Positions 4,704 through 50,549 of a DNA stretch of 64,000 nt are shown one piece after another. Made by a program: the position numbers and the translations under genes. The stretch is from a virus (taxonomy: Duplodnaviria; Heunggongvirae; Uroviricota; Caudoviricetes). The DNA lies in IMG/VR virus record IMGVR_UViG_3300006145_000003; one strand, 5' to 3'. Numbering within the stretch: the stretch's first letter is position 1; every line of letters begins with the position of its first letter. The notes under the pieces are model-generated. The model worked only from the letters and a program-made list of their open reading frames with translations. It had not been told where the DNA came from and did no database searches.

Positions 4704-5021
4704 GGAGCGAGGTTCGATGGCTTTTAGGCCGGGTACGGTACGATTCCGTAGGGCGGCTTGCCGCCTAACGCTTAGACCCCACATCAGCGATGGTAAGTGA
4801 GGACGGCCATCCAAAATCTGAAAGCTGGTCTGGGGCGTGCAGACTACGTAAGTGTTCTGGACAGGGGACTGGTCACAATGTGTTCAAGTGTAGGAAGTGC
4901 TGCCTATGCGTGGGAAACAGTGACACTGTCACTACATAGAAAAGTGCATCCTTTGGAAGTGGGAGATAAAGGTATGAACGGAGTCATGACCGGAATAACC
5001 CGAGGTTAAACTTCCTCCCAT

Positions 5022-7763: not shown

Positions 7764-8470
7764 GATAGGTTCCAAAATCAAAACTCAAAGTTAAAGGAGA
7801 CACGGTATGACAAAAGAAGATTTATGGTTTGTAGGGTGTGTATGTTACCGCAGGGTGTTCCACTTGGCTGGGCGGTAGCGAATTACATTTTTTCGATTGG
7901 GTTCCGCCCCACTGTGCGGACATGAGAGGGAAAAATATGGCTTATAATGCACGAGACCAGCCCCAAGTTGACTCCTTGTCTTATGGCAGATAGGCGAGGG
8001 GTCTAATAGAGTCTGCTATTCATGATAATTATTCTTTAGCTTACATAGCGCTGCTGCCTGATAATCTAATTGGAGGAGTTTGCATGTGGGTGTCTTGCAG
8101 CAGTGCTTCATATGGGGATGTCGCTGATTTAGGGCGCAAAAGTGGTGCAACTCCAAGCATCCTCACTGGATAGTTCTATCCCTGTAATGCAATAACCGTT
8201 AATGCGGTGCTTATCGCCATAGGCATAAGTAACACATGGCTGGACAAGGAAGCCGGGCACGGGATACCTGAAGACTGCAGCCTGGCCACCCCAATACCGA
8301 CGACATCGCATCTCGAACTCACAAACCCGCGTCATCGGACAATGGGGCCCAATGACCAGCCCGAAGCTCCAGGCTGCAGACCGAGTCAGATGAGCATCCG
8401 ACGGCAGCGCCGAGGCTAAAATCAATCCTATGTAGATTATAGGGGTAAAGCATTTTGGAGGTGGTTACAA

Positions 8471-9061
8471 ATGGCTGTGAAGATTTATGTCGAGCCAGAT
8501 GATACCTGGGATTTCTTCGACGATAATCTGTACCGGCTAAAAGAGGAAATGGTTCTTATAGCAGAAAATGAGGAAACAGAATATTCAGTGTTCATTACTG
8601 AGAATAATGGGAATCCGCTATTTTCTGTTTGCAAAGGAGATGCAGCTCCTGAGTATGAGGCTGAATCATCTGATGAAATAGATTGTGTAAATACAGCCGA
8701 GGTATTGTACATGCAGTACCTATATCCAGTCGTCGTTGTTGATGGTCACTCGATTCAACTGGACGATATTGACGATGAATCTGCAACACGGAGGCAGGAG
8801 CTGGAAGATGGACAATACGAACGGGAAGACGAGCTTACGATGGCACTTTGCGAATTCCTTGAGATTGTATTACAAGGAGATTTTTGCTTTGAAGAATCGT
8901 GCGACTTGAAAATGGTTGAAGATACTTTGGACTATATTTTGAAATATCTTACAAAAAACTGGAATTTTTCGATATACCGCCCAATGTTTATAGACGACGG
9001 AAACGGTGGAGAGGTATATAGCGAGTTTCCATATGACGAGTTCAATTTTTCGGAGGAGTGA
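8471..9061 (+). CDS. acidic hypothetical protein
   Basis: ORF with RBS ggaggtgg; D/E-rich. Confidence 0.5.
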   Translation: MAVKIYVEPDDTWDFFDDNLYRLKEEMVLIAENEETEYSVFITENNGNPLFSVCKGDAAPEYEAESSDEIDCVNTAEVLYMQYLYPVVVVDGHSIQLDDIDDESATRRQELEDGQYEREDELTMALCEFLEIVLQGDFCFEESCDLKMVEDTLDYILKYLTKNWNFSIYRPMFIDDGNGGEVYSEFPYDEFNFSEE

Positions 9062-9066
9062 AGTTT

Positions 9067-9726
9067 ATGCCCAGATGTTTAGACGATATGCCCTGGCGCT
9101 CCTTAAAGGGTTTAGGAAATTTAGCACCTAAGCTACTTCACGTTGGTGATTTCAAAAATGAACAACTAAAAAACGGAGTGGATGTCCAATTTAGATTGAT
9201 TGGACTAAATCATGATGTAACTGAGAACGGTATCATTCTTCCCATGACTTGGGAAATGATTGAGTGCTTGCCCGAGAGGTATAGGTGGAACAACAACGAC
9301 ACGACGCGCGGTTCCTGGGCTGGAACCAAACTGTGCCAGAGTATGAATAACCCAGACGGGGAAATATACCAGCTCCTTCCAGACGAGATTGTTTCACTGG
9401 CTGAACCTGTGGTGAAACTCACTGCTAATACATACGACGGCTCAAACAGTATTATCGAATCAGTTCATAAGTTCTGGATAAAGTCTGAAAAGGAAACATA
9501 CGGCAGATGCTTTTACTCTGCTCCTGGCGAGGGTAAGTGGTATGAATACTATCGCCAAGAGGATGTTCCGTGGAGTAAGAAACGTAATGGAGCAGAAGAG
9601 AACTGTTCACTACGGTCGCCGTGTGAAGGGAGTGATTACTCCTTCTGCAGTGTGTACACGGACGGCACCGCGAACGGCAGCAACGCCAGGTATTCCATTG
9701 GCGTGGCCCCGGCTTTCAGTTTCTAA
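9067..9726 (+). CDS. hypothetical protein
   Basis: RBS ggaggag then ATG 9067 (GTG 9058 alternative). Confidence 0.5.
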   Translation: MPRCLDDMPWRSLKGLGNLAPKLLHVGDFKNEQLKNGVDVQFRLIGLNHDVTENGIILPMTWEMIECLPERYRWNNNDTTRGSWAGTKLCQSMNNPDGEIYQLLPDEIVSLAEPVVKLTANTYDGSNSIIESVHKFWIKSEKETYGRCFYSAPGEGKWYEYYRQEDVPWSKKRNGAEENCSLRSPCEGSDYSFCSVYTDGTANGSNARYSIGVAPAFSF

Positions 9727-9912
9727 TCTGCTATATCAAAAGAGTCTGCACCACGCAAGTGGTGCAAGAGCAAACAAATATAGTAATCCGCCGGTCGATA
9801 ATGACCGGCGGGAATTTATGCCCACAATGGCTCCAACCTCCTCGTGGTGTGGGTGGAAAGTCGAAAGACGAACCGATTGGAGTACATTATTATAATTAAA
9901 GGAGTTTTTACT

Positions 9913-10314
9913 ATGGCAAAAATCGTAATCGCGGGGGACGCAGCTGTTATCACTTCTAGCGCTAAGCTGGAGGACATCAAGACGCTGGAGAAGTACCGGC
10001 CCAAGGCGCTGACCCTGACCGAGACCAATGACGACGGCAAGAAAGAGGTTGCCTTCCGCGTCGGTACCACTGCTGGCGCTGGTGACATCAGCAAGTTCGG
10101 AATTTCCTTTGGCAGTGCATCTCATGACGAAAACAAGCTGGCCACTCTCACCATCGGAATCCCCAGCAATGTTGAGGATGCGAAAGAGTATGCGGCCGAG
10201 CACTTCGGTTATGCCGTTATGCTGCTGAACCAGGTCGAGGCTGGGTTTGAGGAAGCGCTGGCGGATGTTAAGACCGAAAAGGAAAAGGTCATGAGCAATA
10301 TCTCCCTGGCGTAA
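9913..10314 (+). CDS. hypothetical protein
   Basis: Strong RBS aaaggag; ORF list start 9844 judged too early. Confidence 0.6.
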   Translation: MAKIVIAGDAAVITSSAKLEDIKTLEKYRPKALTLTETNDDGKKEVAFRVGTTAGAGDISKFGISFGSASHDENKLATLTIGIPSNVEDAKEYAAEHFGYAVMLLNQVEAGFEEALADVKTEKEKVMSNISLA

Positions 10315-10415: not shown

Positions 10416-10643
10416 ATGATTAAAGTTACTGTTGGCAACAATCTGAAGCGCGAGGCCGTTATCATCGACAAGAACACTACTCTGCGTACCTGCCTGGAAG
10501 ACAACGGCGTAGATTATACCCGTGGCACGATGAGCCTGGATGGTTCAACATTGGCTCCCGGCGACCTGGATAAGACGTTCGAGCAGTTCGGCATCACTGA
10601 GAAGTGCTTCCTGCTGAACGTTGTTAAGGCTGACAACGCCTAA
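10416..10643 (+). CDS. small beta-grasp (ThiS/MoaD/ubiquitin-like) protein candidate, 75 aa, no C-terminal GG
   Basis: MIKVTV start, size and hydrophobic periodicity like MoaD/ThiS; sits first in an E2-like/JAB/E1 operon. Confidence 0.45.
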   Translation: MIKVTVGNNLKREAVIIDKNTTLRTCLEDNGVDYTRGTMSLDGSTLAPGDLDKTFEQFGITEKCFLLNVVKADNA

Positions 10644-10680
10644 GCCGACAAGTTCGTTATACATACCCACCTCCTAACGC

Positions 10681-10713
10681 AGAGGGACATCTAAATGATG
10701 TCCCTCTTTTATT
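10681..10713 (+). terminator. rho-independent terminator (agagggacat ctaa atgtccctct + TTTTATT)
   Basis: 10-bp perfect stem followed by T-run. Confidence 0.7.
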
Positions 10714-10715
10714 AT

Positions 10716-10800
10716 GAGGAATTGGCGGAATAGGTAGACGCGCCAGATTTAGGTTCTGGTGGTTTATACCGTATCGGTTCAAGTCCGATATTCCTCACCA
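10716..10800 (+). tRNA. tRNA-Leu (anticodon TAG), long variable arm, CCA encoded
   Basis: Acceptor GAGGAAT/ATTCCTC; anticodon stem CCAGA/TCTGG loop TTTAGGT; T-loop GGTTCAAGTCC. Confidence 0.8.
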
Positions 10801-10824
10801 AATTTTATAAATTGAGGTGTTAAT

Positions 10825-12357
10825 ATGTTCAGAACAAGCATAACATCAACGCCGCTTACATCAAGTACAGCAAATGGATGCTTTCCAAACATCAATGGTA
10901 GGCCTTTTTCAAATGATATATCTTTTTTGGCAACACTGCGAGCGCTGGTTGCCCCTAGGATTCCTGCGGATGAAGAGATATATTTGTTTTTTGGCTCTTC
11001 TTCATATGGGGCTAGCGTAGTAAAAGATAACTCTGCACGCGACATTGTGAGGGCAATCTGCGGAGGTTATGACCTTGAATCTACCGGAAGATTGTTCGTA
11101 CACAATCTTCGTGGTGGACAAGACGACATAAAGGCTAACCTTAAGGTGATAGATGAGACTCTTTGCGCGGTGTATCCGGGCTATCATCGGCTTGACAAAG
11201 TCAAGGAGTTTTATAAGAAGAGTTTCGATGTGGATTGTTATATCAATCCTGAAATAAAGTCTACAATTGTATTTGTTGACAATTTGGACAATCGAAAGCT
11301 CCATTACTTAGAGGTGTCCATTCTGGCCTTTTTCCCTTGGTACTTTAATCCCGAAGATGGATTGGCTGAGGATGAATTTGCGTTAATTAAATCCCTCAGA
11401 GAGAATAAGCCAGACAGTTATAAAGCCTGCATTGAAAAGTTGGCAGAGAAATATGACTTTAGAACTGCCCGCATCAAGCAAATGCTTAGTGGTTTTGAAA
11501 CTCGTTATGAGCGGATTGAGCTAGAAAGGGTGCAAGAATCTATCCGTGCTATCGAAAGAGATATAAACAATCTAAATCAGCGAATTGGCACTTACCTGAC
11601 TGATAGACATGAGAAGTGTATTCGGGTGATGGGGTTACAGAACAAGATAGCGAGTGGAGGCAGCGAAAGCTCGGAAATTATGGACTACTTCTTATGCAAT
11701 AAGAGGCTTGTTTTGGAAGAAGTTTCCGACACCGATATGTTTTTTGCAGTCAAAGATTACTACGAATTCTTTGACAAGGATGCAGCAGAAACCATTATAG
11801 ATAACAAAAATAGTTTCGTGTATTACGGACATTCGCATCGTGATGGCATGAATCCTGATAAAATGGAGCGGCTGTTGCGTGAGCTATTTGTTAGTGATTC
11901 ACCACGACTTCGGATGCGGGTATGTGCAGCTTATCGGTTTGACCTAAATGGTAGTGTGCAGGGACGTTCTGGTCATGACTTCGGAACTGAGTTTACGGGG
12001 TATATGCCTAATCCTCATATAAATCGCTATTCTTGCATGGGCAATTATCAAATGATAATCAACGAATTGCTTATGCAGCAAGATTACATAGGGGCATTAG
12101 AGCAGTGCGTTGCTTCGTGCAAAAGTTTGAATTGGAACGACAGCACAGTGATGGAATCTTTTATGGACACATTGTGGAGCAGCGGAGAAGCAAGCAAGTG
12201 TATAGAACTTCCTAATGGCAAAGTAGTTAAGCCATATGAGGCTGTACAATGGCTTGAAGAGCAAGATGAAGATTCCCAGGGTAAAGAGGAAGCAAAAATC
12301 GATTGCAGTGGTGAGCAGTCGTCTGAATCAGATGGTGAAGAAGAGCCTTTGTTTTGA
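10825..12357 (+). CDS. 510-aa protein with candidate E2-like (UBC-fold) catalytic region near C-terminus (PNPHINRYSCMG)
   Basis: HPN-like His then Cys ~8 aa later resembles E2 active site; operon position between Ubl and JAB/E1. Confidence 0.35.
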   Translation: MFRTSITSTPLTSSTANGCFPNINGRPFSNDISFLATLRALVAPRIPADEEIYLFFGSSSYGASVVKDNSARDIVRAICGGYDLESTGRLFVHNLRGGQDDIKANLKVIDETLCAVYPGYHRLDKVKEFYKKSFDVDCYINPEIKSTIVFVDNLDNRKLHYLEVSILAFFPWYFNPEDGLAEDEFALIKSLRENKPDSYKACIEKLAEKYDFRTARIKQMLSGFETRYERIELERVQESIRAIERDINNLNQRIGTYLTDRHEKCIRVMGLQNKIASGGSESSEIMDYFLCNKRLVLEEVSDTDMFFAVKDYYEFFDKDAAETIIDNKNSFVYYGHSHRDGMNPDKMERLLRELFVSDSPRLRMRVCAAYRFDLNGSVQGRSGHDFGTEFTGYMPNPHINRYSCMGNYQMIINELLMQQDYIGALEQCVASCKSLNWNDSTVMESFMDTLWSSGEASKCIELPNGKVVKPYEAVQWLEEQDEDSQGKEEAKIDCSGEQSSESDGEEEPLF

Positions 12358-13289
12358 GTTGGAGGGTAGATATGAGCAAACCGATTAAGATAACGGAGCA
12401 GTTTCTAAATGAGTGTCGTGCTGATTTTGAAAAGGCACTCCAGCTAACGAAGTTAGCAGACGGGAAAATTTCGTTTACGAAATCTTTTTCTGCTGGGAAT
12501 GAGAAAGCAGCCATTTTGTTTGCACCGATTGCTTGGGCCAAGATGGTAATGCTCATCAAAGAATTCGATAAGGAAGTTGCTTGGCATGGTGTAGCGTTCC
12601 GCAGTGATAACACCGAAGCAAATGAATACATCATTAAGGATATCCTCGTCTATCCTCAGGAGGTTACGCAGACCACGGTAGAGATGGATACGGAGAAGTA
12701 TTCACAGTGGTTGATAGATAACATTGAGGATGAGCGATTCAATAACATCAGAATGCAAGGTCACTCCCATGTGAATATGGGGGTGACACCCTCATCGGTA
12801 GACCTAAATCATCAGGAGGAAATTCTGAACATGCTCGGCGATGATGACTTTTACATTTTTATGATTTGGAATAAGTCATTCGCCAGCTTCGCTAAGATTT
12901 ACGATATGAGAAAAAATCTCCTGTTTGAAAATGGTGATATAACTACCAAGGTAATTGGTGAGGGCGAGGATTTGGGCGAGTTTATCAAGGGTGCCAAGGG
13001 GATGGTGGAGACAAAATACACATACAACAGCACAGGTTATGGCCAATACGGTAATAACGGTTACTGCAATACTGGATATGGGTCATACCCCAATAATATC
13101 ATCGAGGCATCTTCTTATACACAGGGAAAAACCTCTGATGAAAAGAAAGACAAGAAGTCCGATGGTAAAAAGACTGAAAAAAAAGAAAAAAACAAAAAAG
13201 ATAAGCCGCGCACAAGAATTGGAGCTGGATGGCACGGGCTCAATAGCCAGGAAATAGAAGACCTGTATTCAAAGGGATACTATGACTAG
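12354..13289 (+). CDS. JAB/MPN (JAMM) metalloprotease-like protein with Lys-rich low-complexity C-terminus
   Basis: HSHVNMGVTPSSVD fits JAMM motif HxHx7Sx2D; overlaps upstream gene by 4 nt. Confidence 0.6.
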   Translation: MSWRVDMSKPIKITEQFLNECRADFEKALQLTKLADGKISFTKSFSAGNEKAAILFAPIAWAKMVMLIKEFDKEVAWHGVAFRSDNTEANEYIIKDILVYPQEVTQTTVEMDTEKYSQWLIDNIEDERFNNIRMQGHSHVNMGVTPSSVDLNHQEEILNMLGDDDFYIFMIWNKSFASFAKIYDMRKNLLFENGDITTKVIGEGEDLGEFIKGAKGMVETKYTYNSTGYGQYGNNGYCNTGYGSYPNNIIEASSYTQGKTSDEKKDKKSDGKKTEKKEKNKKDKPRTRIGAGWHGLNSQEIEDLYSKGYYD

Positions 13290-13296
13290 GAGGTAA

Positions 13297-13974
13297 ATGA
13301 CTATGGATTTGTCTAAAAGTTATGAGTATTTTCAGCCTGAGAAGGTGACCGAAAGAATCAATATTGTCGGTTGCGGTTCTGTGGGAGCTACTATCGCAGA
13401 GAATTTGGTGAGGCTTGGACTCACCAAAATTTCTTTGTGGGATATGGATGCCGTTACACCACACAATCTTGCCAATCAGATTTTCCGGCATAAAGATATT
13501 GGGCACGCAAAGGTCGAAGCGCTGGCGGACATTCTCACAGAGATAAATCCTGATATCCAAGACGACTTGAAACTGTTTTCTGATGGATGGAACGGTCAGC
13601 AGCTTAACGGGTACGTCTTTTTGTGCGTGGACAATATTGAGTTGCGGCGGCAGATTGTCGAGAAGCATCTCAATAATCCCTATGTCAAAGCAATGTTCGA
13701 CTTCCGCACATTACTGGAGTCTGCGCAGCATTATGCGGCGGATTGGTCTAACTACAAGATGAAAAAGGACTTTCTTAACTCCATGGCGTTCTCTCACGAA
13801 GAGGCGGCAGAAGAGACTCCTGTGTCGGCCTGTGGGGTTACTCTCGGTGTTGCGCCAACTGTACGGATGATATGTGCTTTTGGTGTAACAAATTTCGTGA
13901 ATTTTGTCAGAGGGAACGGTCTGAAGAAGATGATTCTTAATGATGCGTTCCACTATATGCTTGATGCTTTTTAG
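13297..13974 (+). CDS. ThiF/MoeB/E1-like adenylyltransferase (Rossmann GxGxxG)
   Basis: INIVGCGSVGATIAENLVRLGLTKISLWDMDAVTPHNLANQ matches E1/ThiF nucleotide-binding motif. Confidence 0.65.
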   Translation: MTMDLSKSYEYFQPEKVTERINIVGCGSVGATIAENLVRLGLTKISLWDMDAVTPHNLANQIFRHKDIGHAKVEALADILTEINPDIQDDLKLFSDGWNGQQLNGYVFLCVDNIELRRQIVEKHLNNPYVKAMFDFRTLLESAQHYAADWSNYKMKKDFLNSMAFSHEEAAEETPVSACGVTLGVAPTVRMICAFGVTNFVNFVRGNGLKKMILNDAFHYMLDAF

Positions 13975-14016: not shown

Positions 14017-14357
14017 CTTAAAACTGTAACGTATATCCTGTTAAGGAGCTTTACGCTATAAGCTAAAGTGTCAAATTGCTGGGGAAGATACCCGCCGGAA
14101 GGGAAGCACTCCGCTCCGGACGCACGTCGGAACCCACCGGTCAAAAGGCAACAGCAGCTCGCTAGGGCAATTCGCAATACAGCAAACAGAGGATATTTCG
14201 GAATCACCAGGAGTTTGAGCAACAAAAGTCGCAATATAACCCAAATGACTTCAGGAATAACCCGCCCAACTGCGGCGAGTCAGCAACCAACGCCGCAAAT
14301 ATCACAGCTAAACGGAGGCGTGCCCAGACCAATACTCTATGTTAGGTTACAGCTAAG
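14017..14357 (+). ncRNA. candidate retron msr/msd non-coding region bounded by inverted repeats a1 (cttaaaactgtaac) and a2 (gttacagctaag); interior strongly A/C-rich
   Basis: 11/12 complementary inverted repeats flank ~315 nt directly upstream of the RT start, the arrangement typical of retrons. Confidence 0.35.
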
Positions 14358-14373
14358 TAAAGGAGAGACTATT

Positions 14374-15534
14374 ATGGTGTTTATAACAGTTAGGCAGTCA
14401 CCATTTTATCATCAAATGTCCTTGGAGGAATATCTGTTTCAGAACTTTGAATCGCCAGTGCTTATCAATGAAAACACAGCAAACACCAGAACGTATCAGT
14501 GTCGCACTGTGAGCTCCAAGTTTTTGGACAAGATAAATGTAGATGGGCTGATTTCAAAGCTCAAAAGGTTCAATGATTCAACAACAGAGCTGCGCAAAGA
14601 AAATCGCGAATCTCTATATAAAACATTTTACATTCCAAAGAAGTCTGGTGGGTTGCGCAAAATAAACGCACCAAAGCCAGATTTGATGGACGCACTAAGG
14701 AGGCTGAAAAGAATCTTTGAAGATGATTTTCATGCACTTTACCATACATCAGCCTTCGCTTACATACAAAATCGATGCACTGTAGATGCTGTAAAGCGGC
14801 ATCAAAATAATAAGAGTAAGTGGTTCGGTAAGTTAGACTTACATGATTTCTTTGGAAGCACTACTCTAGAATTCGTGTTAAATATGTTCTCGCTGATTTT
14901 CCCATTTAGCGAAGTAGTTAAGGTTCCAGATGGAAAAGAGGCGCTTGTAACTGCACTAGAACTTGCATTTTTAGATGGTGGGTTGCCTCAAGGAACTCCT
15001 ATATCTCCAACTATAACAAACATTATGATGATTCCAATTGATTTCGAACTTACAAAGGCATTTCGAGAGTTTCAAGTTGGAGTACCTGGCAAGAAAAAGA
15101 CGCAAAGTTTCATATATACAAGATATGCCGATGATTTCATTATTTCATCGAAGTATGACTTCGATGTTCGGAAAATTGAAGAATTTGTTGTGAACACTTT
15201 GGAGAAGTATAACGCTCCATTCACAATCAATGCAAAGAAGACAAGATATGGCTCATCTGCTGGCAGAAATTGGAACTTGGGCGTTATGCTTAACAAGGAT
15301 AATGAAATTACAGTAGGACACAAACGTAAGAAACAGTTTCAAGCAATGATGTATAATTACGTAACTGATAAGCGCAATGGCGTTGAGTGGACTCGTGAAG
15401 ACCTGATGACGATGCATGGCTTGTACAGCTATTATAGGATGGTTGAAAAGGATGTGATAGACGCAATTGTAAAGCATATGAATGACAAATTGAACGCAGA
15501 TGTTATCGCCTTGATAAAAGGTGATTTAAGATAG
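14374..15534 (+). CDS. reverse transcriptase, retron-type
   Basis: IPKKSGGLRKI, LDLHDFFGS, LPQGTPISP, YTRYADD, NAKKT motifs (RT motifs 1-7); no maturase or endonuclease domain; RBS aaaggagag. Confidence 0.85.
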   Translation: MVFITVRQSPFYHQMSLEEYLFQNFESPVLINENTANTRTYQCRTVSSKFLDKINVDGLISKLKRFNDSTTELRKENRESLYKTFYIPKKSGGLRKINAPKPDLMDALRRLKRIFEDDFHALYHTSAFAYIQNRCTVDAVKRHQNNKSKWFGKLDLHDFFGSTTLEFVLNMFSLIFPFSEVVKVPDGKEALVTALELAFLDGGLPQGTPISPTITNIMMIPIDFELTKAFREFQVGVPGKKKTQSFIYTRYADDFIISSKYDFDVRKIEEFVVNTLEKYNAPFTINAKKTRYGSSAGRNWNLGVMLNKDNEITVGHKRKKQFQAMMYNYVTDKRNGVEWTREDLMTMHGLYSYYRMVEKDVIDAIVKHMNDKLNADVIALIKGDLR

Positions 15535-15843
15535 TACCTGTAATGCATAACTGTATAGACAGTGCTTCTCGTTGTAAACAGAAGTAACGCTTTGCTGGGC
15601 AAGGAAAGAACCTTGCGGAAAGTATCCCAGATGCCCCGACCCAGTCGACTACAGAGAGCCCAACTACCACCAAGTCATCCAATACCTAAACACATAAGCA
15701 ACACTATGGCTCCCATCGTCTCGACACTCAGGCCCGAAATGAAACGACCCCTTCACCACCTAGCCCCGCAGCAGAAACCTGCGTTTTAGAAGGACAGTCA
15801 CATACTCAGATTACAGGTTATCACAAATGAAAGGTGTGGTATT

Positions 15844-17253: not shown

Positions 17254-17371
17254 CTCAGACTAACTTATCTAGCAAAGAAGCGTCGCCCTTGTGTATACAA
17301 AACCCTTCCACTCGAAGGCTTTTGTACAGAAAGCAACTATAAGACTATAACTAAAAACAGGAGGATAAGAT

Positions 17372-17926
17372 ATGCGGGTTTTAGTAGTTGTTGATATGCA
17401 GAATGATTTTATTGATGGTACGCTTGGTACAGACGAGGCCATTACCATTGTGCCAAGGGTTATCGAAAAAATCAAGAAGTTTGATGGCGACATGATTATC
17501 ACTCATGATACCCACAAAGAAAATTACCTGGGTACGCTAGAAGGAAGAATGCTGCCGGTGACACATTGTATTCAAGGGACGGAGGGGTGGAAACTGCATG
17601 ATGAAGTTTTTTCAGCGGTTGACAACCGTGTCCGAGCCGGTACTGCTAATGCGCAGGTATTTATGAAACCTACATTTGGTTCGGTAGAATTGGGTGAATA
17701 CCTGGTTAACAAGAGTCATGATGTGGACATTGATGAGGTCGTTCTGGTGGGTTTGTGTACCGATATCTGCGTTATATCCAATGCTCTACTCATTAAAGCA
17801 TTTCTGCCAGAGATTAAGGTGACTGTGGATGCTGCCTGCTGCGCTGGGGGCACGCCAGAGAGCCACGAGAATGCTTTGCGGGCTATGCGGATGTGTCAGG
17901 TTAATGTCGAGAATTGGGAGGGATAA
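17372..17926 (+). CDS. pncA: nicotinamidase / isochorismatase-family hydrolase
   Basis: VVVDMQNDF and GLCTDICV catalytic motifs. Confidence 0.8.
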   Translation: MRVLVVVDMQNDFIDGTLGTDEAITIVPRVIEKIKKFDGDMIITHDTHKENYLGTLEGRMLPVTHCIQGTEGWKLHDEVFSAVDNRVRAGTANAQVFMKPTFGSVELGEYLVNKSHDVDIDEVVLVGLCTDICVISNALLIKAFLPEIKVTVDAACCAGGTPESHENALRAMRMCQVNVENWEG

Positions 17927-17927
17927 A

Positions 17928-18719
17928 ATGATTGCAGTTAATGGGGCACCAGTAGACTTCACACAGTTCCCGGATGGTACAACATCTTTCCGTTTTGACC
18001 CCGATTCAAGCACTACCATTTATTGGGGGTATGACGGAGACCATGAGTGTATCTTGCTGTGGTATTTAGTGAATCATGTCCGCTCTGTGGTAGGACATGA
18101 CACCTATATTCGTCTTATTATGCCATACATTCCAAATGCCAGAATGGATAGAGTAAAGAACAAGGATGAAGTGTTCACCCTAAAATGGTTTGCCGCTTTC
18201 ATTAACAATATGCATTTGAATGAGGTGATTGTGTTTGACCCACATTCCAATGTATCCGCTGCGCTTATCAATCACATCCAAGTTATTCAACCGGATAAAT
18301 ACATCAAAGAAGCAATCTCTGCTATCGGTGATAACAACCTTTTGCTGTGCTACCCAGATGAAGGTGCGGCTAAAAGATATTCTGAGCTGATGGAGGCCGA
18401 GTACATTTTCGGTATTAAGCATAGGGATTGGCGCACCGGCAGAATTGAGCGGCTAGAGTTGACCACTCCAGATAAGGTAGTAGGTCGTACTGTTCTAATT
18501 GTGGACGATATCTGTTCGCGTGGTGGCACGTTTACACATACGGCAAAGGCATTAAAAGAAGCAGGTGCCAATGACATATATCTATATGTTTCCCACTGTG
18601 AGAACACCATTACGAAAGGTACGGTACTGACAGACGACCTGATTCGTCATGTTTTTACCACTGACAGTATATATCGTGGTGAATATGAAAGAATCACCGT
18701 ATTAAAACAGGAGGCATAA
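17928..18719 (+). CDS. prs: ribose-phosphate pyrophosphokinase (PRPP synthetase)
   Basis: VLIVDDICSRGGTF PRPP-binding motif; overall Prs layout. Confidence 0.8.
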   Translation: MIAVNGAPVDFTQFPDGTTSFRFDPDSSTTIYWGYDGDHECILLWYLVNHVRSVVGHDTYIRLIMPYIPNARMDRVKNKDEVFTLKWFAAFINNMHLNEVIVFDPHSNVSAALINHIQVIQPDKYIKEAISAIGDNNLLLCYPDEGAAKRYSELMEAEYIFGIKHRDWRTGRIERLELTTPDKVVGRTVLIVDDICSRGGTFTHTAKALKEAGANDIYLYVSHCENTITKGTVLTDDLIRHVFTTDSIYRGEYERITVLKQEA

Positions 18720-18720
18720 A

Positions 18721-20235
18721 ATGATTCTATATAACCCATTGCTTTGTTTGGACTTTTACAAAACTGCCCATGCAGAGCAGTATCCGCAAACATTAACCAA
18801 AATGGTTTCTTACTATACGCCGCGAATGACCCGCTTGGAAGATACGGATAAGGTCACATTGTTTGGACTACAAGCGTTTATTAAGGAATTTCTTATTGAT
18901 GCGTTCAATATCAATTTCTTCTGGAAAAATTGGGAAGACGTACTTACGGAATATAAGCGTATTCTTAACGCCACCATCAATACGGATGGTATCGGAGAGA
19001 AACGGATGAAAGCACTGCACAACCTCAGGTATCTTCCTTTGGAGATTCGAGCTGTGCCAGAGGGTACTCGTACAAATATTAAGGTGCCACAGATTGAGAT
19101 TTCTAACACTCACCCGGATTTTGTATGGCTAGTCAACTCCATCGAAACCATGCTATCCTGTACCATGTGGCACACTCAGGTTTCCGCTGAGGTAGGATAC
19201 CGCTATCGTCAAATCGTCAATGAGTACGCCGAACGTACTTGTGATGATGGCACGGTTCGCGCAAGACTCCTTGGCGATTTTTCTATGCGCGGCCAGGAGA
19301 GTGCAGAAAGTGCAACTAAAAGCTCTGCTGCATTCTGTCTTAGCTTCCTGAATACAGCTACAGTTCCGGCCATCCTCTGGCTGGAGGACAACTATAACTG
19401 TGATTGTACCAAGGAGCAGGTTGCTTTCGGCGCTCTGTCCACAGAACACAGTGTGATGTGTTCGAACTATGCCATCGACGGCGATGAGATTACTCACATC
19501 AACCGACTTTTGACAGAGGTTTATCCGCATCAGAGTTTCTCTATGGTTAGCGATAGCTACGACTACTGGAATCTGGTGAACGAAATTCTACCCCAACTCA
19601 AGGATGAGATTCTGGCGCATGACGGTTGCTTGTCTATTCGCGGTGACAGCGGAGACCCTGTAGAAGTTGTTACTGAGACTGTATTTAGACTATGGGATAT
19701 CTTTGGCGGAACGGTCAACAGTAAAGGCTTTAAGGTTCTAAATCCTCATGTTAAGGCGTTGTATGGTGACAGCATTACACCCCGGCGCTGCAAGCAGATT
19801 TACGAAATCCTTGAGAACGCCGGGTTTGCCATTAACAATGTTGCTCTTGGTGTTGGTTCTTTCTCCATGCAATGTCTGGAGACAATTATCAGAAATGATG
19901 AGGGGCTAGCTGGTTATTCTGAGGTAAAAGCCTATGCGCCATATACTCGCGATACATTTGGTATCGCTGTTAAGGCCACATATGCCGAGGATGCTGATGG
20001 CAAGCCTATTATGATTTTCAAGAACCCCAAGACCGATACTGGACACTTTAAGAAGTCACAACGTGGTTGTTGCCGCGTGTATAAGGACGGTGACAACTAC
20101 ACCTATGAAGATGGCCTGACCTGGGCAGAAGCGCAAGGAAACAACGAGCTTCGGACGGTCTTCAAGAATGGTGAGTTTATCAAGACATACACACTATCCG
20201 AAGTACGCCAGAATCTTCACGGCGGACGGTTCTGA
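18721..20235 (+). CDS. nadV: nicotinamide phosphoribosyltransferase (Nampt/NadV)
   Basis: N-terminal DFYKTAH motif, ~500 aa; NAD-salvage neighbours. Confidence 0.8.
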   Translation: MILYNPLLCLDFYKTAHAEQYPQTLTKMVSYYTPRMTRLEDTDKVTLFGLQAFIKEFLIDAFNINFFWKNWEDVLTEYKRILNATINTDGIGEKRMKALHNLRYLPLEIRAVPEGTRTNIKVPQIEISNTHPDFVWLVNSIETMLSCTMWHTQVSAEVGYRYRQIVNEYAERTCDDGTVRARLLGDFSMRGQESAESATKSSAAFCLSFLNTATVPAILWLEDNYNCDCTKEQVAFGALSTEHSVMCSNYAIDGDEITHINRLLTEVYPHQSFSMVSDSYDYWNLVNEILPQLKDEILAHDGCLSIRGDSGDPVEVVTETVFRLWDIFGGTVNSKGFKVLNPHVKALYGDSITPRRCKQIYEILENAGFAINNVALGVGSFSMQCLETIIRNDEGLAGYSEVKAYAPYTRDTFGIAVKATYAEDADGKPIMIFKNPKTDTGHFKKSQRGCCRVYKDGDNYTYEDGLTWAEAQGNNELRTVFKNGEFIKTYTLSEVRQNLHGGRF

Positions 20236-33142: not shown

Positions 33143-33162
33143 CAGTGAGGGAGGGTATAGAA

Positions 33163-34368
33163 ATGGTTGAATTGCAAGGGAAGTACGCATCTGCAAAGGT
33201 ATTTACCAATATTGTTGATGAAGCATCCATATCGCAAGTAATAAATCTTTTGAACCAGCCTTACATCGATGGCAGCGTTGTCAGAATGATGCCAGATATT
33301 CATGCCGGGGCTGGCTGCACTATTGGCACGACAATGACTATCAAGGATAAGATTTGTCCTAATCTTGTTGGGGTTGATATTGGTTGCGGCATGGAGACAA
33401 TCCGAATTAAGGAGAACTTCATCGAACCAGCAAAACTTGATAAAGTAATTCGTGAGTTGATTCCATCTGGATTCAGTGTGCGTTCTACTAACCATAGGTT
33501 TGCAAATGACATAGACTTGTCAAAGCTATCTTGTGTGAAAAAGATAGACATAGACCGTGCATACAACAGCATAGGCACACTCGGTGGTGGCAATCATTTT
33601 ATAGAAGCCAATAAAGATGGAGATGAAAATATCTACATTATTGTCCACTCTGGCAGTCGTCATCTTGGCCTTGAAATTGCCAATTACTACCAGGAAGCGG
33701 CATACAATACTCTAACATCATATAGCAAAGAAGAGATTAACAGTATTATTAAGACGCTGAAAACTTCTGGACGCGCAAAAGAAATTCAAAATAAATTGAA
33801 AAAGCTGAAATCAAAAAGGTCTCCAGTTCCAAAGCAGTTAGCGTATGTGGAGGGCGAGCTTTTTGACCGATATATCCACGATATGAGAATAGCACAACAA
33901 TTTGCAGAGTTAAACCGTCAGGCAATGATGGACAGCATTGTTAATGGAATGGGACTCCATGTTATAGAACAGTTTACAACTATCCACAATTACATTGACA
34001 CAGATAATATGATTCTTCGAAAAGGTGCGGTTTCCGCCCAGAACGGGGAACGCTTGCTTATCCCCATAAATATGAGGGATGGTAGTTTACTTTGCACCGG
34101 CAAGGGTAATGAAGATTGGAACTTCTCCGCTCCTCATGGAGCAGGCCGACTAATGAGCCGCAGTGATGCAAAAGAAGCGTTTACAGTTTCTGAGTTCAAA
34201 CAACAAATGGAGGGTATCTATACAACATCTGTTGGACGCAGCACATTAGATGAGTGCCCCATGGCTTATAAGAGAATGGATGATATAGTTGGAAATATTG
34301 AGCCAACAGTAAGTGTTGATGCAGTTATCAGGCCAATATATAATTTCAAGTCTGGCGATGGAGAATAA
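33163..34368 (+). CDS. rtcB: RtcB RNA 3'-phosphate ligase
   Basis: MPDIHAGAGCTIGTT, GVDIGCGM, SAPHGAGR catalytic motifs; RBS gagggaggg. Confidence 0.85.
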   Translation: MVELQGKYASAKVFTNIVDEASISQVINLLNQPYIDGSVVRMMPDIHAGAGCTIGTTMTIKDKICPNLVGVDIGCGMETIRIKENFIEPAKLDKVIRELIPSGFSVRSTNHRFANDIDLSKLSCVKKIDIDRAYNSIGTLGGGNHFIEANKDGDENIYIIVHSGSRHLGLEIANYYQEAAYNTLTSYSKEEINSIIKTLKTSGRAKEIQNKLKKLKSKRSPVPKQLAYVEGELFDRYIHDMRIAQQFAELNRQAMMDSIVNGMGLHVIEQFTTIHNYIDTDNMILRKGAVSAQNGERLLIPINMRDGSLLCTGKGNEDWNFSAPHGAGRLMSRSDAKEAFTVSEFKQQMEGIYTTSVGRSTLDECPMAYKRMDDIVGNIEPTVSVDAVIRPIYNFKSGDGE

Positions 34369-46949: not shown

Positions 46950-47028
46950 TCCGTTGCCACCCAACGTTTTGTGCCGTGTGTGATGGCGAGTATATGTGCA
47001 TATATACGGCAAAAGGAGGAAGCTGAAA

Positions 47029-48213
47029 ATGATTTATCTTGACTCTGCAGCAACTTCGCAGATTGACAAAAGAGTCTTAGATGTTATGATGCCATATCTG
47101 GAAAATCAATATGGCAATCCGGGCTCGATACACATTCTTGGCAGGACTTCAAAAGCAGCTGTCGATAGGGCAAGGAGGCAGGTTGCTAACCTAATTGGAT
47201 GCGGCCCAGAGCAAGTGGTATTCACCTCGGGTGGCAGCGAATCAAATTCAACCGTGTTTAGTGGAGTAAAGGATTATCTTTTTTCATCTGGGAAAAAACA
47301 CATACTAATTTCAGCTGTTGAACACGATTCAGTTATTAAAGCAGCTCAAAAGCTTATAAAAGACGGGTTTTATGTTGAGTTTATACCTGTATCTTGTGAT
47401 GGGGTGGTTTCCGTTGCGGATATAGAGCGTAGGATAAAGTCAGATACTGGGCTGGTATCGGTGATGTATGTAAATAATGAGACCGGGTCAGTAAATCCAG
47501 TTGAAGAGATTGGGACACTATGTCTTAAAAGAGGAATACTGTTTCATACAGATTGTGTCCAGGCTGCATCTTGTTGTGAGATTGATGTTGGTAAGATTGG
47601 GTGTGACTTTCTGTCTATATCATCCCATAAGATACATGGCCCCAAGGGAGCAGGTGCTCTATTTATAAAAGAGCAAGGCGTACTGTCTCCGTTGGTGTAC
47701 GGCGGAGCTGAACAGGAGCATGGAATGCGGGGCGGCACAGAGAATGTGGCCGGCATTGTTGGGTTTGGAGAGGCTTGTGAAATTCTTATGTCGCAACTGG
47801 CTGCAGATATAGTTATGACGTCTGTATTAAAGCAAAAGTTTTATGAGGTATTGCAGGACACCCTCCATAATCAGCTCGATATAGGAAATATTGTTTCGGT
47901 TAATGGTATGTCTGTAATTCATCCAGGAAAGATACTAAATATAAAAATAGACAATGTGGATGGTGAAACTCTTTTACTTATGTTGGACGGACAGGAAGTA
48001 TGTATGTCCGCCGGCTCTGCGTGTCGCAGCCATGAAAAAGAGCCCAGCCACGTTTTAACTGCAATGGGTCTATCAGCAGAAGAGGCCAGGAGTTCTATAA
48101 GGGTGTCTTTCTCAAGAATGAATGACGTTGATGAGGTAAGTAAGGTCGCAAATATGCTGGCAAACGATATTGCAACACTAAGGGCAGCAGGAGGATTTGA
48201 TGACAGTAAGTGA
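47029..48213 (+). CDS. iscS: cysteine desulfurase (IscS/NifS, class V aminotransferase)
   Basis: MIYLDSAATSQ start, PLP-lysine SSHKIHGPKGAG, catalytic SAGSACRS. Confidence 0.85.
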   Translation: MIYLDSAATSQIDKRVLDVMMPYLENQYGNPGSIHILGRTSKAAVDRARRQVANLIGCGPEQVVFTSGGSESNSTVFSGVKDYLFSSGKKHILISAVEHDSVIKAAQKLIKDGFYVEFIPVSCDGVVSVADIERRIKSDTGLVSVMYVNNETGSVNPVEEIGTLCLKRGILFHTDCVQAASCCEIDVGKIGCDFLSISSHKIHGPKGAGALFIKEQGVLSPLVYGGAEQEHGMRGGTENVAGIVGFGEACEILMSQLAADIVMTSVLKQKFYEVLQDTLHNQLDIGNIVSVNGMSVIHPGKILNIKIDNVDGETLLLMLDGQEVCMSAGSACRSHEKEPSHVLTAMGLSAEEARSSIRVSFSRMNDVDEVSKVANMLANDIATLRAAGGFDDSK

Positions 48214-49258
48214 AATCAAGAAAATGTTAGATGGTCATGATTATGACTTTCTTAGAACTAATGAACATCTTAAAGACAGGATAGTATTCCTAACACTGGG
48301 CGGAAGTTATTCATACGGTACCAACATAGAATCATCTGATGTAGATATTAGGGGTTGCGCCCTTAATTCGCCATCTGACTTGCTAGGACTTTCACATTTT
48401 GAGCAGGTTGTCAATACTGAAACTGACACAACTGTATATAGCTTTAATAAGCTAATTAGTTTGTTGCTAGATTGTAATCCAAATACAATTGAGATGTTAG
48501 GATGTAAGCCGGAACATTACATGTATCTTTCTGATATTGGAAAAGAATTGATTGATAACAGACAAATGTTTCTGTCCCGTAGGGCGGTACATGCTTTTGG
48601 AGGATATGCAAATCAGCAGTTACGAAGGCTTGAAAATGCTATCGCAAGAGATAGAATGGAACAGTCGAGAAAAGAGGAACACATTTTAGCCTCATTGAAA
48701 AATTCTGTCCATGCTTTCGAAAAGAAGTATACTACCTTTGAAAATGGAAGTTTGACACTCTATACTTCTGATAGCACCAGAGATGACCTGGATAGAGAGA
48801 TTTTTGCGAACATACATATTGATGGATATCCAGCTCGCCAGTTCACCAGTATCCTCAATGACCTTTCATTGGTGATTAAGGACTATGAAAAGCTTAATAA
48901 GCGGAATCACAAGAAAGATAGCAACCATCTCAATAAGCACGCGATGCATTTGGTGAGGCTCTATCTCACCTGTTTTGACATACTTGAAAGAAAAGAGATA
49001 GTAACATATCGTGAAAATGACCTTGAACTTTTGAAAAGTGTTCGAAGAGGAGATTATCAGAATGAAGACGGCACATATCGTCAGGAGTTTTTTGAGATAG
49101 TAAACTCATTTGAACAGAGGTTGAACTATGACAAAGAGAACAACGACCTACCAGACAGTCCAGATATGAAAAAGGTTGAAGAATTTGTTATGAGTGTGAA
49201 TAGGAGGGTGGTTGATGGGCTGTGTGTGCATTCCGAACGGAGCTCAGAACATCATTGA
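48200..49258 (+). CDS. Pol-beta-superfamily nucleotidyltransferase of unknown specificity
   Basis: GGSYSYGTNIESSDVDIRG = G[GS]x9-13DxD NTase motif. Confidence 0.55.
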   Translation: MTVSEIKKMLDGHDYDFLRTNEHLKDRIVFLTLGGSYSYGTNIESSDVDIRGCALNSPSDLLGLSHFEQVVNTETDTTVYSFNKLISLLLDCNPNTIEMLGCKPEHYMYLSDIGKELIDNRQMFLSRRAVHAFGGYANQQLRRLENAIARDRMEQSRKEEHILASLKNSVHAFEKKYTTFENGSLTLYTSDSTRDDLDREIFANIHIDGYPARQFTSILNDLSLVIKDYEKLNKRNHKKDSNHLNKHAMHLVRLYLTCFDILERKEIVTYRENDLELLKSVRRGDYQNEDGTYRQEFFEIVNSFEQRLNYDKENNDLPDSPDMKKVEEFVMSVNRRVVDGLCVHSERSSEHH

Positions 49259-50549
49259 TACATTAGAAGCATCAGGTTATGAAGCGTATGTTGTTGGTGG
49301 ATGTGTGAGAGATAGTCTGCTTGGGATAGTTCCCCACGACTGGGATATATGTACAAGCGCAGTTCCAAGCGAAATAGAATCGTGCTTTGAAGACCGAAGA
49401 ATTGTTGAAACTGGACTCCAACATGGAACAATAACAATCATTGAAGATGGTGTTAGTTATGAGGTTACAACATTCCGAATCGATGGGAAATACAGCGATT
49501 CTAGGCATCCAGATAAAGTCACTTATACAAAGGACATAGATAGTGACTTGTCCAGGAGAGATTTCACCTTTAATGCGATGGCATATAACGAGCGGGTTGG
49601 ATTGATTGACCCATTTGGTGGAGCATTTGACCTAATACGTGGGGAAATATCCTGCGTTGGAAACGCAAATGATAGATTCAAAGAGGATGCCTTGCGAATT
49701 ATGAGGGCGCTGCGGTTTGCATCAACGTATGGTTTTACCATATCAGAAAGAACCAACGAGGCTATTCATATTAACAAAAAACTCCTAAACAATATTGCAG
49801 CTGAAAGGATTCGTGAAGAGCTATGTAAAATTGTAATGGGGAGAGGTGTTCTTGGGGTGTTGCTCAACTATAGCGACATCATTGCAACTATTATTCCAGA
49901 GATTGAGCCATGTATAGGATTCCAGCAGAATAATCCATATCACCAATATACAGTGTACGACCATATCGCTCATGCCGTTTCCAATTATTCTGGTGATGAC
50001 CAGTCGGTTAAGTTAGCGTTGTTACTTCATGATATAGGTAAGCCCCTTTGTTACACGGGGGATGAAAAGGGTGGACATTTTTATAGGCATGGAGTATATT
50101 GTCATGATGTCGCAGAAAAAGTTATGGAAAGACTGCGATTTGATAACAGAACCGCTGACGAAGTTCTCACGCTTGTTCTGTACCACGATGCAATAATTGA
50201 ACCAACGACTAAGGCCATAAAGCGGTGGCTTAACAAAATCGACCCGCAAAGGTTTTGTCAACTTATGGACGTGCGAATGGCAGATATCTTAGCTCATACG
50301 AAGGGTACACAGGCATCAAGAGTTGATAAGTGCAATATGGTCAAGGCGGTTCTTGAGCAGGTAATTGAGGAGGAACAATGTTTTTCAATATCTGACCTAG
50401 CTATAAACGGACATGATATTATGGACTTGGGGGTTCCAGAAGGCAAACGGGTTGGTGAGGTTTTGAAAAAACTCCTAGATGTCGTAATTGCAGAAGATAT
50501 CGAGAATGAACATACGGCCTTGGTTGAGTATGCGAAGAGGTATGTATGA
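49215..50549 (+). CDS. cca: CCA-adding tRNA nucleotidyltransferase with HD domain
   Basis: VGGCVRDSLLG, RRDFTFNAMA, HD motif HDIGKP. Confidence 0.85.
   Translation: MGCVCIPNGAQNIIDTLEASGYEAYVVGGCVRDSLLGIVPHDWDICTSAVPSEIESCFEDRRIVETGLQHGTITIIEDGVSYEVTTFRIDGKYSDSRHPDKVTYTKDIDSDLSRRDFTFNAMAYNERVGLIDPFGGAFDLIRGEISCVGNANDRFKEDALRIMRALRFASTYGFTISERTNEAIHINKKLLNNIAAERIREELCKIVMGRGVLGVLLNYSDIIATIIPEIEPCIGFQQNNPYHQYTVYDHIAHAVSNYSGDDQSVKLALLLHDIGKPLCYTGDEKGGHFYRHGVYCHDVAEKVMERLRFDNRTADEVLTLVLYHDAIIEPTTKAIKRWLNKIDPQRFCQLMDVRMADILAHTKGTQASRVDKCNMVKAVLEQVIEEEQCFSISDLAINGHDIMDLGVPEGKRVGEVLKKLLDVVIAEDIENEHTALVEYAKRYV

Follow-up and report, generated by a model that had tools for sequence, protein, structure and literature searches.

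A putative ubiquitin-like conjugation module with an unusual C-terminus encoded by large gut phages

Studies of ubiquitin-like protein (Ubl) conjugation in prokaryotes have until now treated it as a means by which bacteria fight phages, in the bacterial ISG15-like (Bil) pathway, type II CBASS (anti-phage signaling based on cyclic oligonucleotides) and the Bub pathway. In phage genomes, a Ubl and a JAB domain have been linked in the Lambda/T1 tail-assembly proteins TAPI, which carries the Ubl, and TAPK, a JAB-NlpC protein (Iyer et al. 2006, PMC1779556). We came across no other earlier Ubl-plus-JAB association of phages in the literature covered. That literature, which was partial, did not describe a Ubl-E2-JAB-E1 set carried by a phage, and an earlier description is possible. 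Here we analyze a cassette that sits on the virus side. It occupies positions 10416-13974 of a 64,000-nucleotide (nt) stretch, hereafter the window, of the IMG/VR virus record IMGVR_UViG_3300006145_000003 (Caudoviricetes). The cassette encodes a 75-amino acid (aa) Ubl, a 510-aa E2-like protein (p510), a JAB/JAMM metallopeptidase (JAB) and a small ThiF-type E1-like protein (E1), which are the same four roles, in the same gene order, as in Bil. On balance, we think that this is probably a phage-encoded, self-contained module for Ubl-protein conjugation with an unusual Ubl C-terminus.

A conserved gene block in large gut phages

The window is from a large phage, based on its genes for a capsid protein, Pol III alpha, DnaB, ERF and GP88, its eight tRNAs, and its relatives, which are IMG/VR viral contigs. 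It also encodes a ligase, RtcB, a CCA-adding enzyme and NAD-salvage proteins. All features listed in a first-pass annotation, which was made from the window sequence alone, were found at the positions it gave. Each open reading frame (ORF) of the cassette has hundreds to thousands of full-length homologues, so we treat these ORFs as real genes and not as chance. The block contains the following elements.

9913-10314, + strand: p131, a 132-aa protein whose gene immediately precedes that of Ubl in both subclades
10416-10643, + strand: Ubl, a 75-aa ubiquitin-like beta-grasp protein (MIKV...VVKADNA) with a flexible C-terminal tail
10681-10707, + strand: intrinsic-terminator-like hairpin (11 bp, 6 G-C pairs, then a T-run) that closes the p131-Ubl unit
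10716-10800, + strand: class II tRNA-Leu(UAG) between the Ubl and E2-like genes (ARAGORN; Rfam, 57 bits)
10825-12357, + strand: p510, a multidomain E2-like protein of 510 aa
12007-12036, + strand: candidate E2 active-site loop of p510, P395-N-P-H398-I-N-R-Y-S-C404 (PNPHINRYSC, residues 395-404)
12372-13289, + strand: JAB/JAMM metallopeptidase of 305 aa with a low-complexity C-terminal tail
13297-13974, + strand: E1-like ThiF/MoeB-type adenylation domain, a single-domain protein of 225 aa (Pfam ThiF, E 4e-23)

The gene order p131-Ubl-E2-like-JAB-E1-reverse transcriptase (RT) was found in approximately 130 phage loci that form two subclades. The first-pass annotation had reported the Bil-like order Ubl-E2-JAB-E1 in a phage genome, next to a retron-type RT, and had proposed looking for homologous cassettes in other phages; both the order and its recurrence were borne out. 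The conserved unit exceeds four genes, as p131 lies upstream and the RT with its noncoding RNAs (ncRNAs) lies downstream. We collected 87 loci of the subclade of the window from IMG/VR contigs (60-130 kb), metagenome contigs (up to 341 kb) and contigs of gut metagenome-assembled genomes (MAGs). Their arrangement is p131-Ubl-(tRNA)-p510-JAB-(occasional insert)-E1-(DUF6273 gene in many)-ncRNA-RT. The gut MAGs whose contigs carry the cassette were mostly classified as Oscillospiraceae and other Clostridia and in a few cases as Prevotella or Alistipes, and within the genome collection the cassette occurred on MAG contigs only. The distant relative MT835544, with a p510 that is 26-27% identical, shares all six genes and their order, as do all 44 of the 44 complete loci of the second subclade (phages of 140-150 kb). 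The carriers are a large, abundant clade of human and animal gut phages. In a DNA search against isolated phages, the tRNA was the sole match, and a protein search of phages returned one unannotated metagenomic phage record.

Median protein identities were 82% for Ubl, 72% for E1, 68% for the RT, 59% for JAB, 54% for p510 and 49% for p131. Ubl ranked first in conservation in 70 of 73 loci, as would be expected if it were a modifier that has many partners. Of the enzymes, p510 is the fastest-diverging, as a target-recognition subunit would be. The p510 family comprises 764 clusters at 90% identity and 2167 representatives at 50% identity, none of them annotated; the Ubl family has at least 1394 clusters and the JAB family 2609. 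The cassette gives names to three large families (Ubl, E2-like and JAB) that match no curated model in Pfam, PHROGs or NCBIfam at present.

The p510, JAB and E1 genes are tightly packed, with spacers of 14 nt (p510-JAB) and 7 nt (JAB-E1), each with a Shine-Dalgarno site. These genes do not overlap, and 181 nt containing the terminator-like hairpin and the tRNA separate the Ubl gene from the p510 gene. An earlier description of four translationally coupled genes does not hold for the Ubl-E2 junction. With its strong Shine-Dalgarno site and the hairpin at its end, the Ubl gene forms a separate unit.

No fold or family could be assigned to p131, which had no match in Pfam, PHROGs or PDB, and we would place it in the system from its synteny. 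The p131 and Ubl genes are present twice in loci L001-L003, with identical protein sequences (in L001, at 9120-9828 and 17269-17977), and the second copy lies among tRNAs downstream of the RT. This duplication suggests selection for the dosage of both small proteins.

The tRNA-Leu had been viewed as an unusual feature of the operon architecture. We find that it belongs to a tRNA-rich region as a passenger that the cassette does not require, because a tRNA (mostly Leu-UAA) occupies the Ubl-p510 position in 68 of 80 loci of the subclade of the window and in 0 of 45 loci of the second subclade. Its absence from the latter rules out a design feature of the operon. At the same position in L001 (9883-9975), L002 and L003, the tRNA was called as tRNA-Tyr with an unusual ATA anticodon, 91-93 nt in length and with a long variable arm.

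Folds and motifs of the Ubl and of the E2-like, JAB and E1-like proteins

The AlphaFold2 model of Ubl (predicted local distance difference test score 93.8) has a beta-beta-alpha-beta-beta topology and a disordered 6-residue tail. Comparison of the model with PDB using Foldseek gave ubiquitin, SUMO, NEDD8 and the BilA complex 8tyx as the best matches (E 3e-4 to 2e-3, TM scores 0.6-0.7), and the top structural matches were ubiquitin and SUMO, not ThiS or MoaD. On this basis, the 75-aa protein is confidently predicted to be a ubiquitin-type beta-grasp, in agreement with what its size had suggested at first pass. Ubl had no match in Pfam, NCBIfam, PHROGs or PADLOC, and none in PDB sequence and profile searches.

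The Ubl C-terminus ends in a K-x-D/E-N-A motif that is invariant across both subclades and is followed by 0-3 variable residues (nothing, A, AA, R, QN, LAA or VVM). The tail is free of Gly; it has no Gly-Gly end, as had been noted before, and no reactive Gly. Precursors of ubiquitin and BilA carry, after an invariant motif, a short unconserved stretch that a deubiquitinase removes (PMC10557695). Because the invariant motif and short unconserved tail of Ubl match this precursor pattern (PMC10557695), the K-x-D/E-N-A motif with its variable extension looks like a processing site. We infer that the JAMM enzyme trims the Ubl tail; the reactive end could be A75 or N74.

The JAMM protease motif that had been recognized in the third gene is complete and invariant. 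It is located at nt 12762-12803 (HSHVNMGVTPSSVD), and the signature E68...H131-x-H133-x7-S141-x2-D144 is unchanged in 44 diverse members and in a relative with 36% identity. Although no curated family was reached at threshold, 28 of the 44 family members weakly match Pfam Prok-JAB, the PADLOC JAB model matches with E 9e-4, and the best PDB profile match is Rpn11, aligned across the motif with E 0.17. The gene most likely starts at ATG 12372, and not at TTG 12354 as first annotated, because a GGAGG Shine-Dalgarno site and the MSKPIK N-terminus of all homologues support this start. Beyond a Lys-rich linker of low complexity, the motif K-P-R-T-R-I-G-A-G-W (residues 278-287, nt 13203-13232) is found in the JAB tail; it is conserved in the subclade of the window and absent from JAB of the second subclade. 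This motif may be a docking peptide.

E1 was correctly recognized at first pass by its ThiF/E1 Rossmann motif (GCGSVG). A single ThiF domain spans residues 19-207, with no second domain and no CxxC zinc motif, and the PDB matches were Uba1, UBA5, Cap2, MoeB and ThiF. The family alignment retains the GCGSVG glycine loop (from nt 13369), K72, D112 and C179 (in TPVSAC), and C179 is placed at the position of MoeB C187 and ThiF C184. The best sequence matches are ThiF-family models, with scores far under the NCBIfam cut-offs (72 vs 159 bits for ThiF and 45 vs 266 bits for MoeB). Near the N-terminus, the RYxRQ-type motif is replaced by Y..FQPEK.

In p510, an alpha/beta domain occupies the N-terminus (residues 1-210), residues 224-276 form a long helix, and the C-terminal region (approximately 284-480) is UBC/RWD-like and is followed by an acidic, unconserved C-terminal tail. 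It had been proposed as an E2-like protein with an HPN-like His approximately 8 residues before a Cys. We predict a UBC/RWD-like fold with an invariant Cys loop, and we call the protein E2-like at the level of the fold only. P395, H398, C404 and Y408 of the C-terminal domain are invariant across subclades that are only 26-30% identical. The His, however, is 6 residues before C404, and it is the Asn of the PN pair that is 8 residues before it. C291, C367, C428 and C432, the remaining cysteines of the C-terminal half, are not kept in the second subclade. The retention of C404 alone points to a catalytic Cys and away from a zinc site, and the loss of the other four rules out the zinc-site interpretation.

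Aligned by eye, Y-M-P-N-P-H-I-N-R-Y-S-C of p510 and the canonical Y-H-P-N-I-N-S-N-G-S-I-C of UBE2D2 have equal Asn-to-Cys spacing (8). An hhalign comparison of the C-terminal domain with four canonical E2 sequences was not significant (E ~0.3), and its register sets C404 on the catalytic Cys. There was no family match for p510 in Pfam, NCBIfam, PHROGs or PADLOC, and Pfam scans of 87 homologues one by one returned coiled-coil noise alone. PDB sequence and profile searches found nothing for full-length p510 or its C-terminal domain. In a profile search of a representative library, the best 150 matches all belonged to the same full-length family, with no bridge to known E2 families.

Proposed pathway and competing explanations

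From the folds, the motifs and the conserved co-occurrence of these genes, we infer the chemical steps and the nature of the targets as follows. Ubl would be made together with p131 from their own strongly expressed unit. Where the precursor has extra residues after ...K-x-D/E-N-A, the JAMM peptidase would trim them. The small ThiF-type E1, which like MoeB, ThiF, UBA5 and the E1 domain of Cap2 is probably a homodimer, would adenylate the Ubl C-terminus and would probably hold Ubl as a thioester on C179. Ubl would then pass to C404 in the UBC-like C-terminal domain of p510. The fast-evolving N-terminal half and coiled coil of p510 would select the target, so we propose that a separate E3 would not be needed. 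The JAMM peptidase could also reverse the conjugates. Regarding the role of such a module, we give an even chance that it modifies proteins of the host or the phage for takeover or assembly. A less likely role that we still take seriously is to interfere with Ubl-based immunity of the host (Bil or type II CBASS), and other roles share what remains.

Several observations weigh against this proposal. Ubl lacks a C-terminal Gly, and we know of no characterized E1 that activates a ...D-N-A end. In all members, E1 residues 57-61 (NLANQ, nt 13465-13479) have an Asn in place of the near-universal Arg of N-L-x-R-Q, the usual ATP-binding motif of E1 and ThiF proteins. A terminator separates the Ubl gene from the enzyme genes, which may thus not be co-regulated with it. 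Finally, MT835544 shares NAD-salvage genes and other genes with the window, so part of the synteny, and perhaps much of it, is due to common descent.

Downstream of E1, two further elements adjoin the cassette.

14022-14356, + strand: retron-like ncRNA unit directly upstream of the RT (covariance model, 62.6 bits)
14374-15534, + strand: retron-type RT directly downstream of E1 and the ncRNA

The RT matches the NCBIfam retron St85 model (E 9e-49, 166 bits, under the 235-bit cut-off) and PADLOC RT_II-A (E 2e-44). The homologues give ATG 14374 as its predicted start, replacing the GTG 14068 of the first-pass annotation. The ncRNA has an a1/a2 inverted repeat (CTGTAAC at 14024-14030 and GTTACAG at 14346-14352) that co-varies across loci, closes approximately 330 nt and ends approximately 20 nt before the RT start, within the 400-nt gap between E1 and the RT. 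Its two msr-like 5' stem-loops have compensatory changes in 12 of 14 pairs. A retron-clade RT preceded by an ncRNA that a1/a2 inverted repeats enclose is a hallmark of retrons, and this locus fits it. The covariance model found two more units in the window, at 15536-15822 (directly after the RT and before p114) and at 8180-8448 (before a 196-aa ORF). Each of the three paralogous units has its own a1/a2 repeat and a 5' module of a1, G and two stem-loops, with a2 approximately 20 nt before the next gene. The unit interiors, of approximately 200-250 nt, are variable, C-rich and U-poor, with no dominant hairpin and with fold z-scores of -1 to -1.5. A locus usually has 2-3 units, of which one precedes the RT and one or two follow it, whereas a classical retron combines a single ncRNA, which has a long msd hairpin, with 2'-5' branched msDNA and a neighbouring effector.

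A functional link between the RT with its ncRNA and the cassette would be a reading from their adjacency. It is possible, though unlikely, that the cassette and the flanking retron-like RT/ncRNA array are one system, in which the Ubl machinery would be an effector or regulator or would act on the RT or its cDNA. E1 is followed by the RT in every locus that covers the region, in both subclades, and the E1-ncRNA-RT adjacency persists even where insertions split JAB and E1 (L044 and L052). The ncRNA units bracket the region (at 8180, 14022 and 15536), and no classical retron effector is evident next to the RT. However, all loci come from one broad phage lineage with other shared syntenic genes, so the adjacency may be inherited and not functional. 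A DUF6273 gene also intervenes between E1 and the ncRNA in many loci. To our knowledge, no known retron type uses E1, E2 or JAB partners (Mestre 2020 classification). We likewise doubt that the six-gene block and its 2-3 ncRNA units are a single system in which conjugation of the ...D-N-A Ubl is coupled to reverse transcription, with either process controlling the other; we know of no such combination described for retrons or for Ubl pathways.

A second, similarly doubtful explanation accepts activation of Ubl by E1 and changes the product. Ubl could be joined to a non-protein molecule (lipid, nucleic acid or small molecule), or its Asn-Ala end could undergo other chemistry (succinimide formation or Asn cleavage). 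The non-Gly C-terminus with its invariant Asn and the Arg-to-Asn change in the E1 active site fit this idea, and there are precedents in the conjugation of Atg8 to phosphatidylethanolamine and in the ThiF-like MccB, which has a C-terminal Asn as its target. A UBC-like fold with an invariant Cys, accompanied by a JAMM isopeptidase, is, however, the usual equipment for protein conjugation, and the block has no conserved partner that handles lipids or nucleotides.

There is also a slim chance that p131 and Ubl are an independent, abundant pair of small proteins (e.g., structural or nucleic-acid binding) and that p510, JAB and E1 act elsewhere, for example on the p510 C-terminus, as Cap2 and Cap3 act on CD-NTases. 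The terminator (and, in one subclade, the tRNA) between the two units, the duplication of p131 and Ubl alone in L001-L003, and a gap of approximately 1 kb between the Ubl and p510 genes in some loci are in line with such a division. This explanation is at odds with the ubiquitin-type fold, free flexible tail and processing-site signature of Ubl, with the position of Ubl next to p510 in nearly all of the approximately 130 loci, and with the acidic and unconserved C-terminal tail of p510.

A sulfur-carrier pathway of the ThiS/MoaD/CysO type for cofactor synthesis, thionucleoside synthesis or tRNA thiolation is very improbable and was rejected: the ThiF-family matches of E1, a class-V aminotransferase 33 kb away (46996-48213) and the occurrence of JAB proteases in the CysO and QbsE pathways speak for it, but Ubl has no Gly-Gly end and is closest to ubiquitin and SUMO, an E2-like protein is present, and in or near the block there is no ThiG, MoaE, CysM, TtuA, rhodanese or other sulfur-acceptor enzyme, the neighbours being NAD salvage, ligase, RNA repair and tRNAs.

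The preferred interpretation remains Ubl-protein conjugation, in keeping with a beta-grasp Ubl, a UBC-like p510 and neighbours other than those of a sulfur-carrier pathway. If it is correct, phages too use Ubl tagging, be it to take over the host, to assemble virions or to counter Ubl-based immunity of the host. The ...K-x-D/E-N-A end and the Arg-less minimal E1 would then widen the range of ends and enzymes known for E1-E2 cascades. The system is small, and its co-expression in E. coli is feasible.

Other features of the window surround this block. A 222-aa DUF6273 protein is encoded upstream of p131 (9058-9726); the DUF6273 protein found between E1 and the ncRNA/RT in many related loci (e.g., L085, 13667-14467) is a second one, of approximately 266 aa. 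A cluster for NAD salvage (isochorismatase, a PRPP-synthetase-like protein and NAMPT) is located at 17372-20235. A set for RNA repair and tRNA maintenance, located at 33145-34368 and 46996-50549, includes RtcB, the class-V aminotransferase (cysteine-desulfurase-like), RlaP and the CCA-adding enzyme. Rfam matches in the window include RAGATH-16 at 308-378 (80 bits) and RAGATH-36 at 4731-4860 (104 bits).

Comparison with described systems

Several described systems share part of this gene set. The PRTRC system has a ThiF-family protein (TIGR03736) alongside PRTRC proteins A-F; the TIGR03736 model scores 28 bits against E1 (cut-off 144.75), and the other proteins match no PRTRC model. The sulfur carriers ThiS, MoaD and CysO with ThiF, MoeB or MoeZ (with or without a Mec+/QbsD JAB) resemble the cassette in the size and class of the E1, in the equivalent Cys and in pairing a small beta-grasp protein with an E1, with or without a JAB. 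They differ in having a Gly-Gly end, a sulfur-acceptor enzyme and a rhodanese, none of which is found here, whereas the cassette has an E2-like protein. TAPI and TAPK have no E1 or E2, belong to a tail-assembly cluster and have the Ubl domain fused to others; the cassette described here lies in an accessory tRNA-rich region.

The Bub (6E/DUF6527) systems are similar in combining a diverged E1, an E2 and a Ubl without a mobile catalytic-Cys domain in the E1. They have Ubl-E2 or E2-E1 fusions, oxyester (Ser) chemistry and a DUF6527 serine protease, whereas the genes here are unfused, C179 and C404 are conserved, and the peptidase is of the JAMM type. None of the proteins scanned against Pfam matched DUF6527, with the ORFs of locus L088 scanned at E <= 0.01 only. 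In type II CBASS, Cap2 is an E2-E1 fusion that works with the JAB protein Cap3, next to a CD-NTase and an effector, and the tail of the CD-NTase stands in the place of a Ubl; here, E1 and the E2-like protein are separate and there is a real beta-grasp Ubl. Cap2 (E1-E2) models match the Rossmann segment of E1 only, and the PADLOC E1-E2 match covers E1 residues 18-88. Neither a CD-NTase match nor a CBASS effector was found among the flanking genes scanned.

The closest parallel is Bil. In addition to the shared roles and gene order, the Ubl model has the beta-grasp of BilA, and the invariant JAMM motif corresponds to the JAB/JAMM feature of BilC. The first-pass annotation had pointed to the Bil gene order. 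Our comparisons do not support membership of this family: no component reached any curated cut-off, and no family membership was detected at the sequence level. BilD has an IAD-AAD-CYS architecture with a zinc site, whereas E1 here is a 225-aa single adenylation domain without IAD and CYS. BilB is a small UBC-like E2 whose catalytic Cys is closely followed by a conserved His, whereas p510 has 510 aa, an extra N-terminal domain, a coiled coil and a His before the Cys. In Bil, the JAB exposes a reactive C-terminal Gly (PMC10557695), whereas Ubl here ends in K-x-D/E-N-A. Because three defining features of the family are missing, namely the domain layout of BilD, a reactive Gly and a setting in bacterial defence, the cassette is not a member of the Bil family. 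Bil systems are found in bacterial genomes and defence islands, where they act against phages; the cassette described here is carried on phage contigs of 60-220 kb together with capsid and replication genes.

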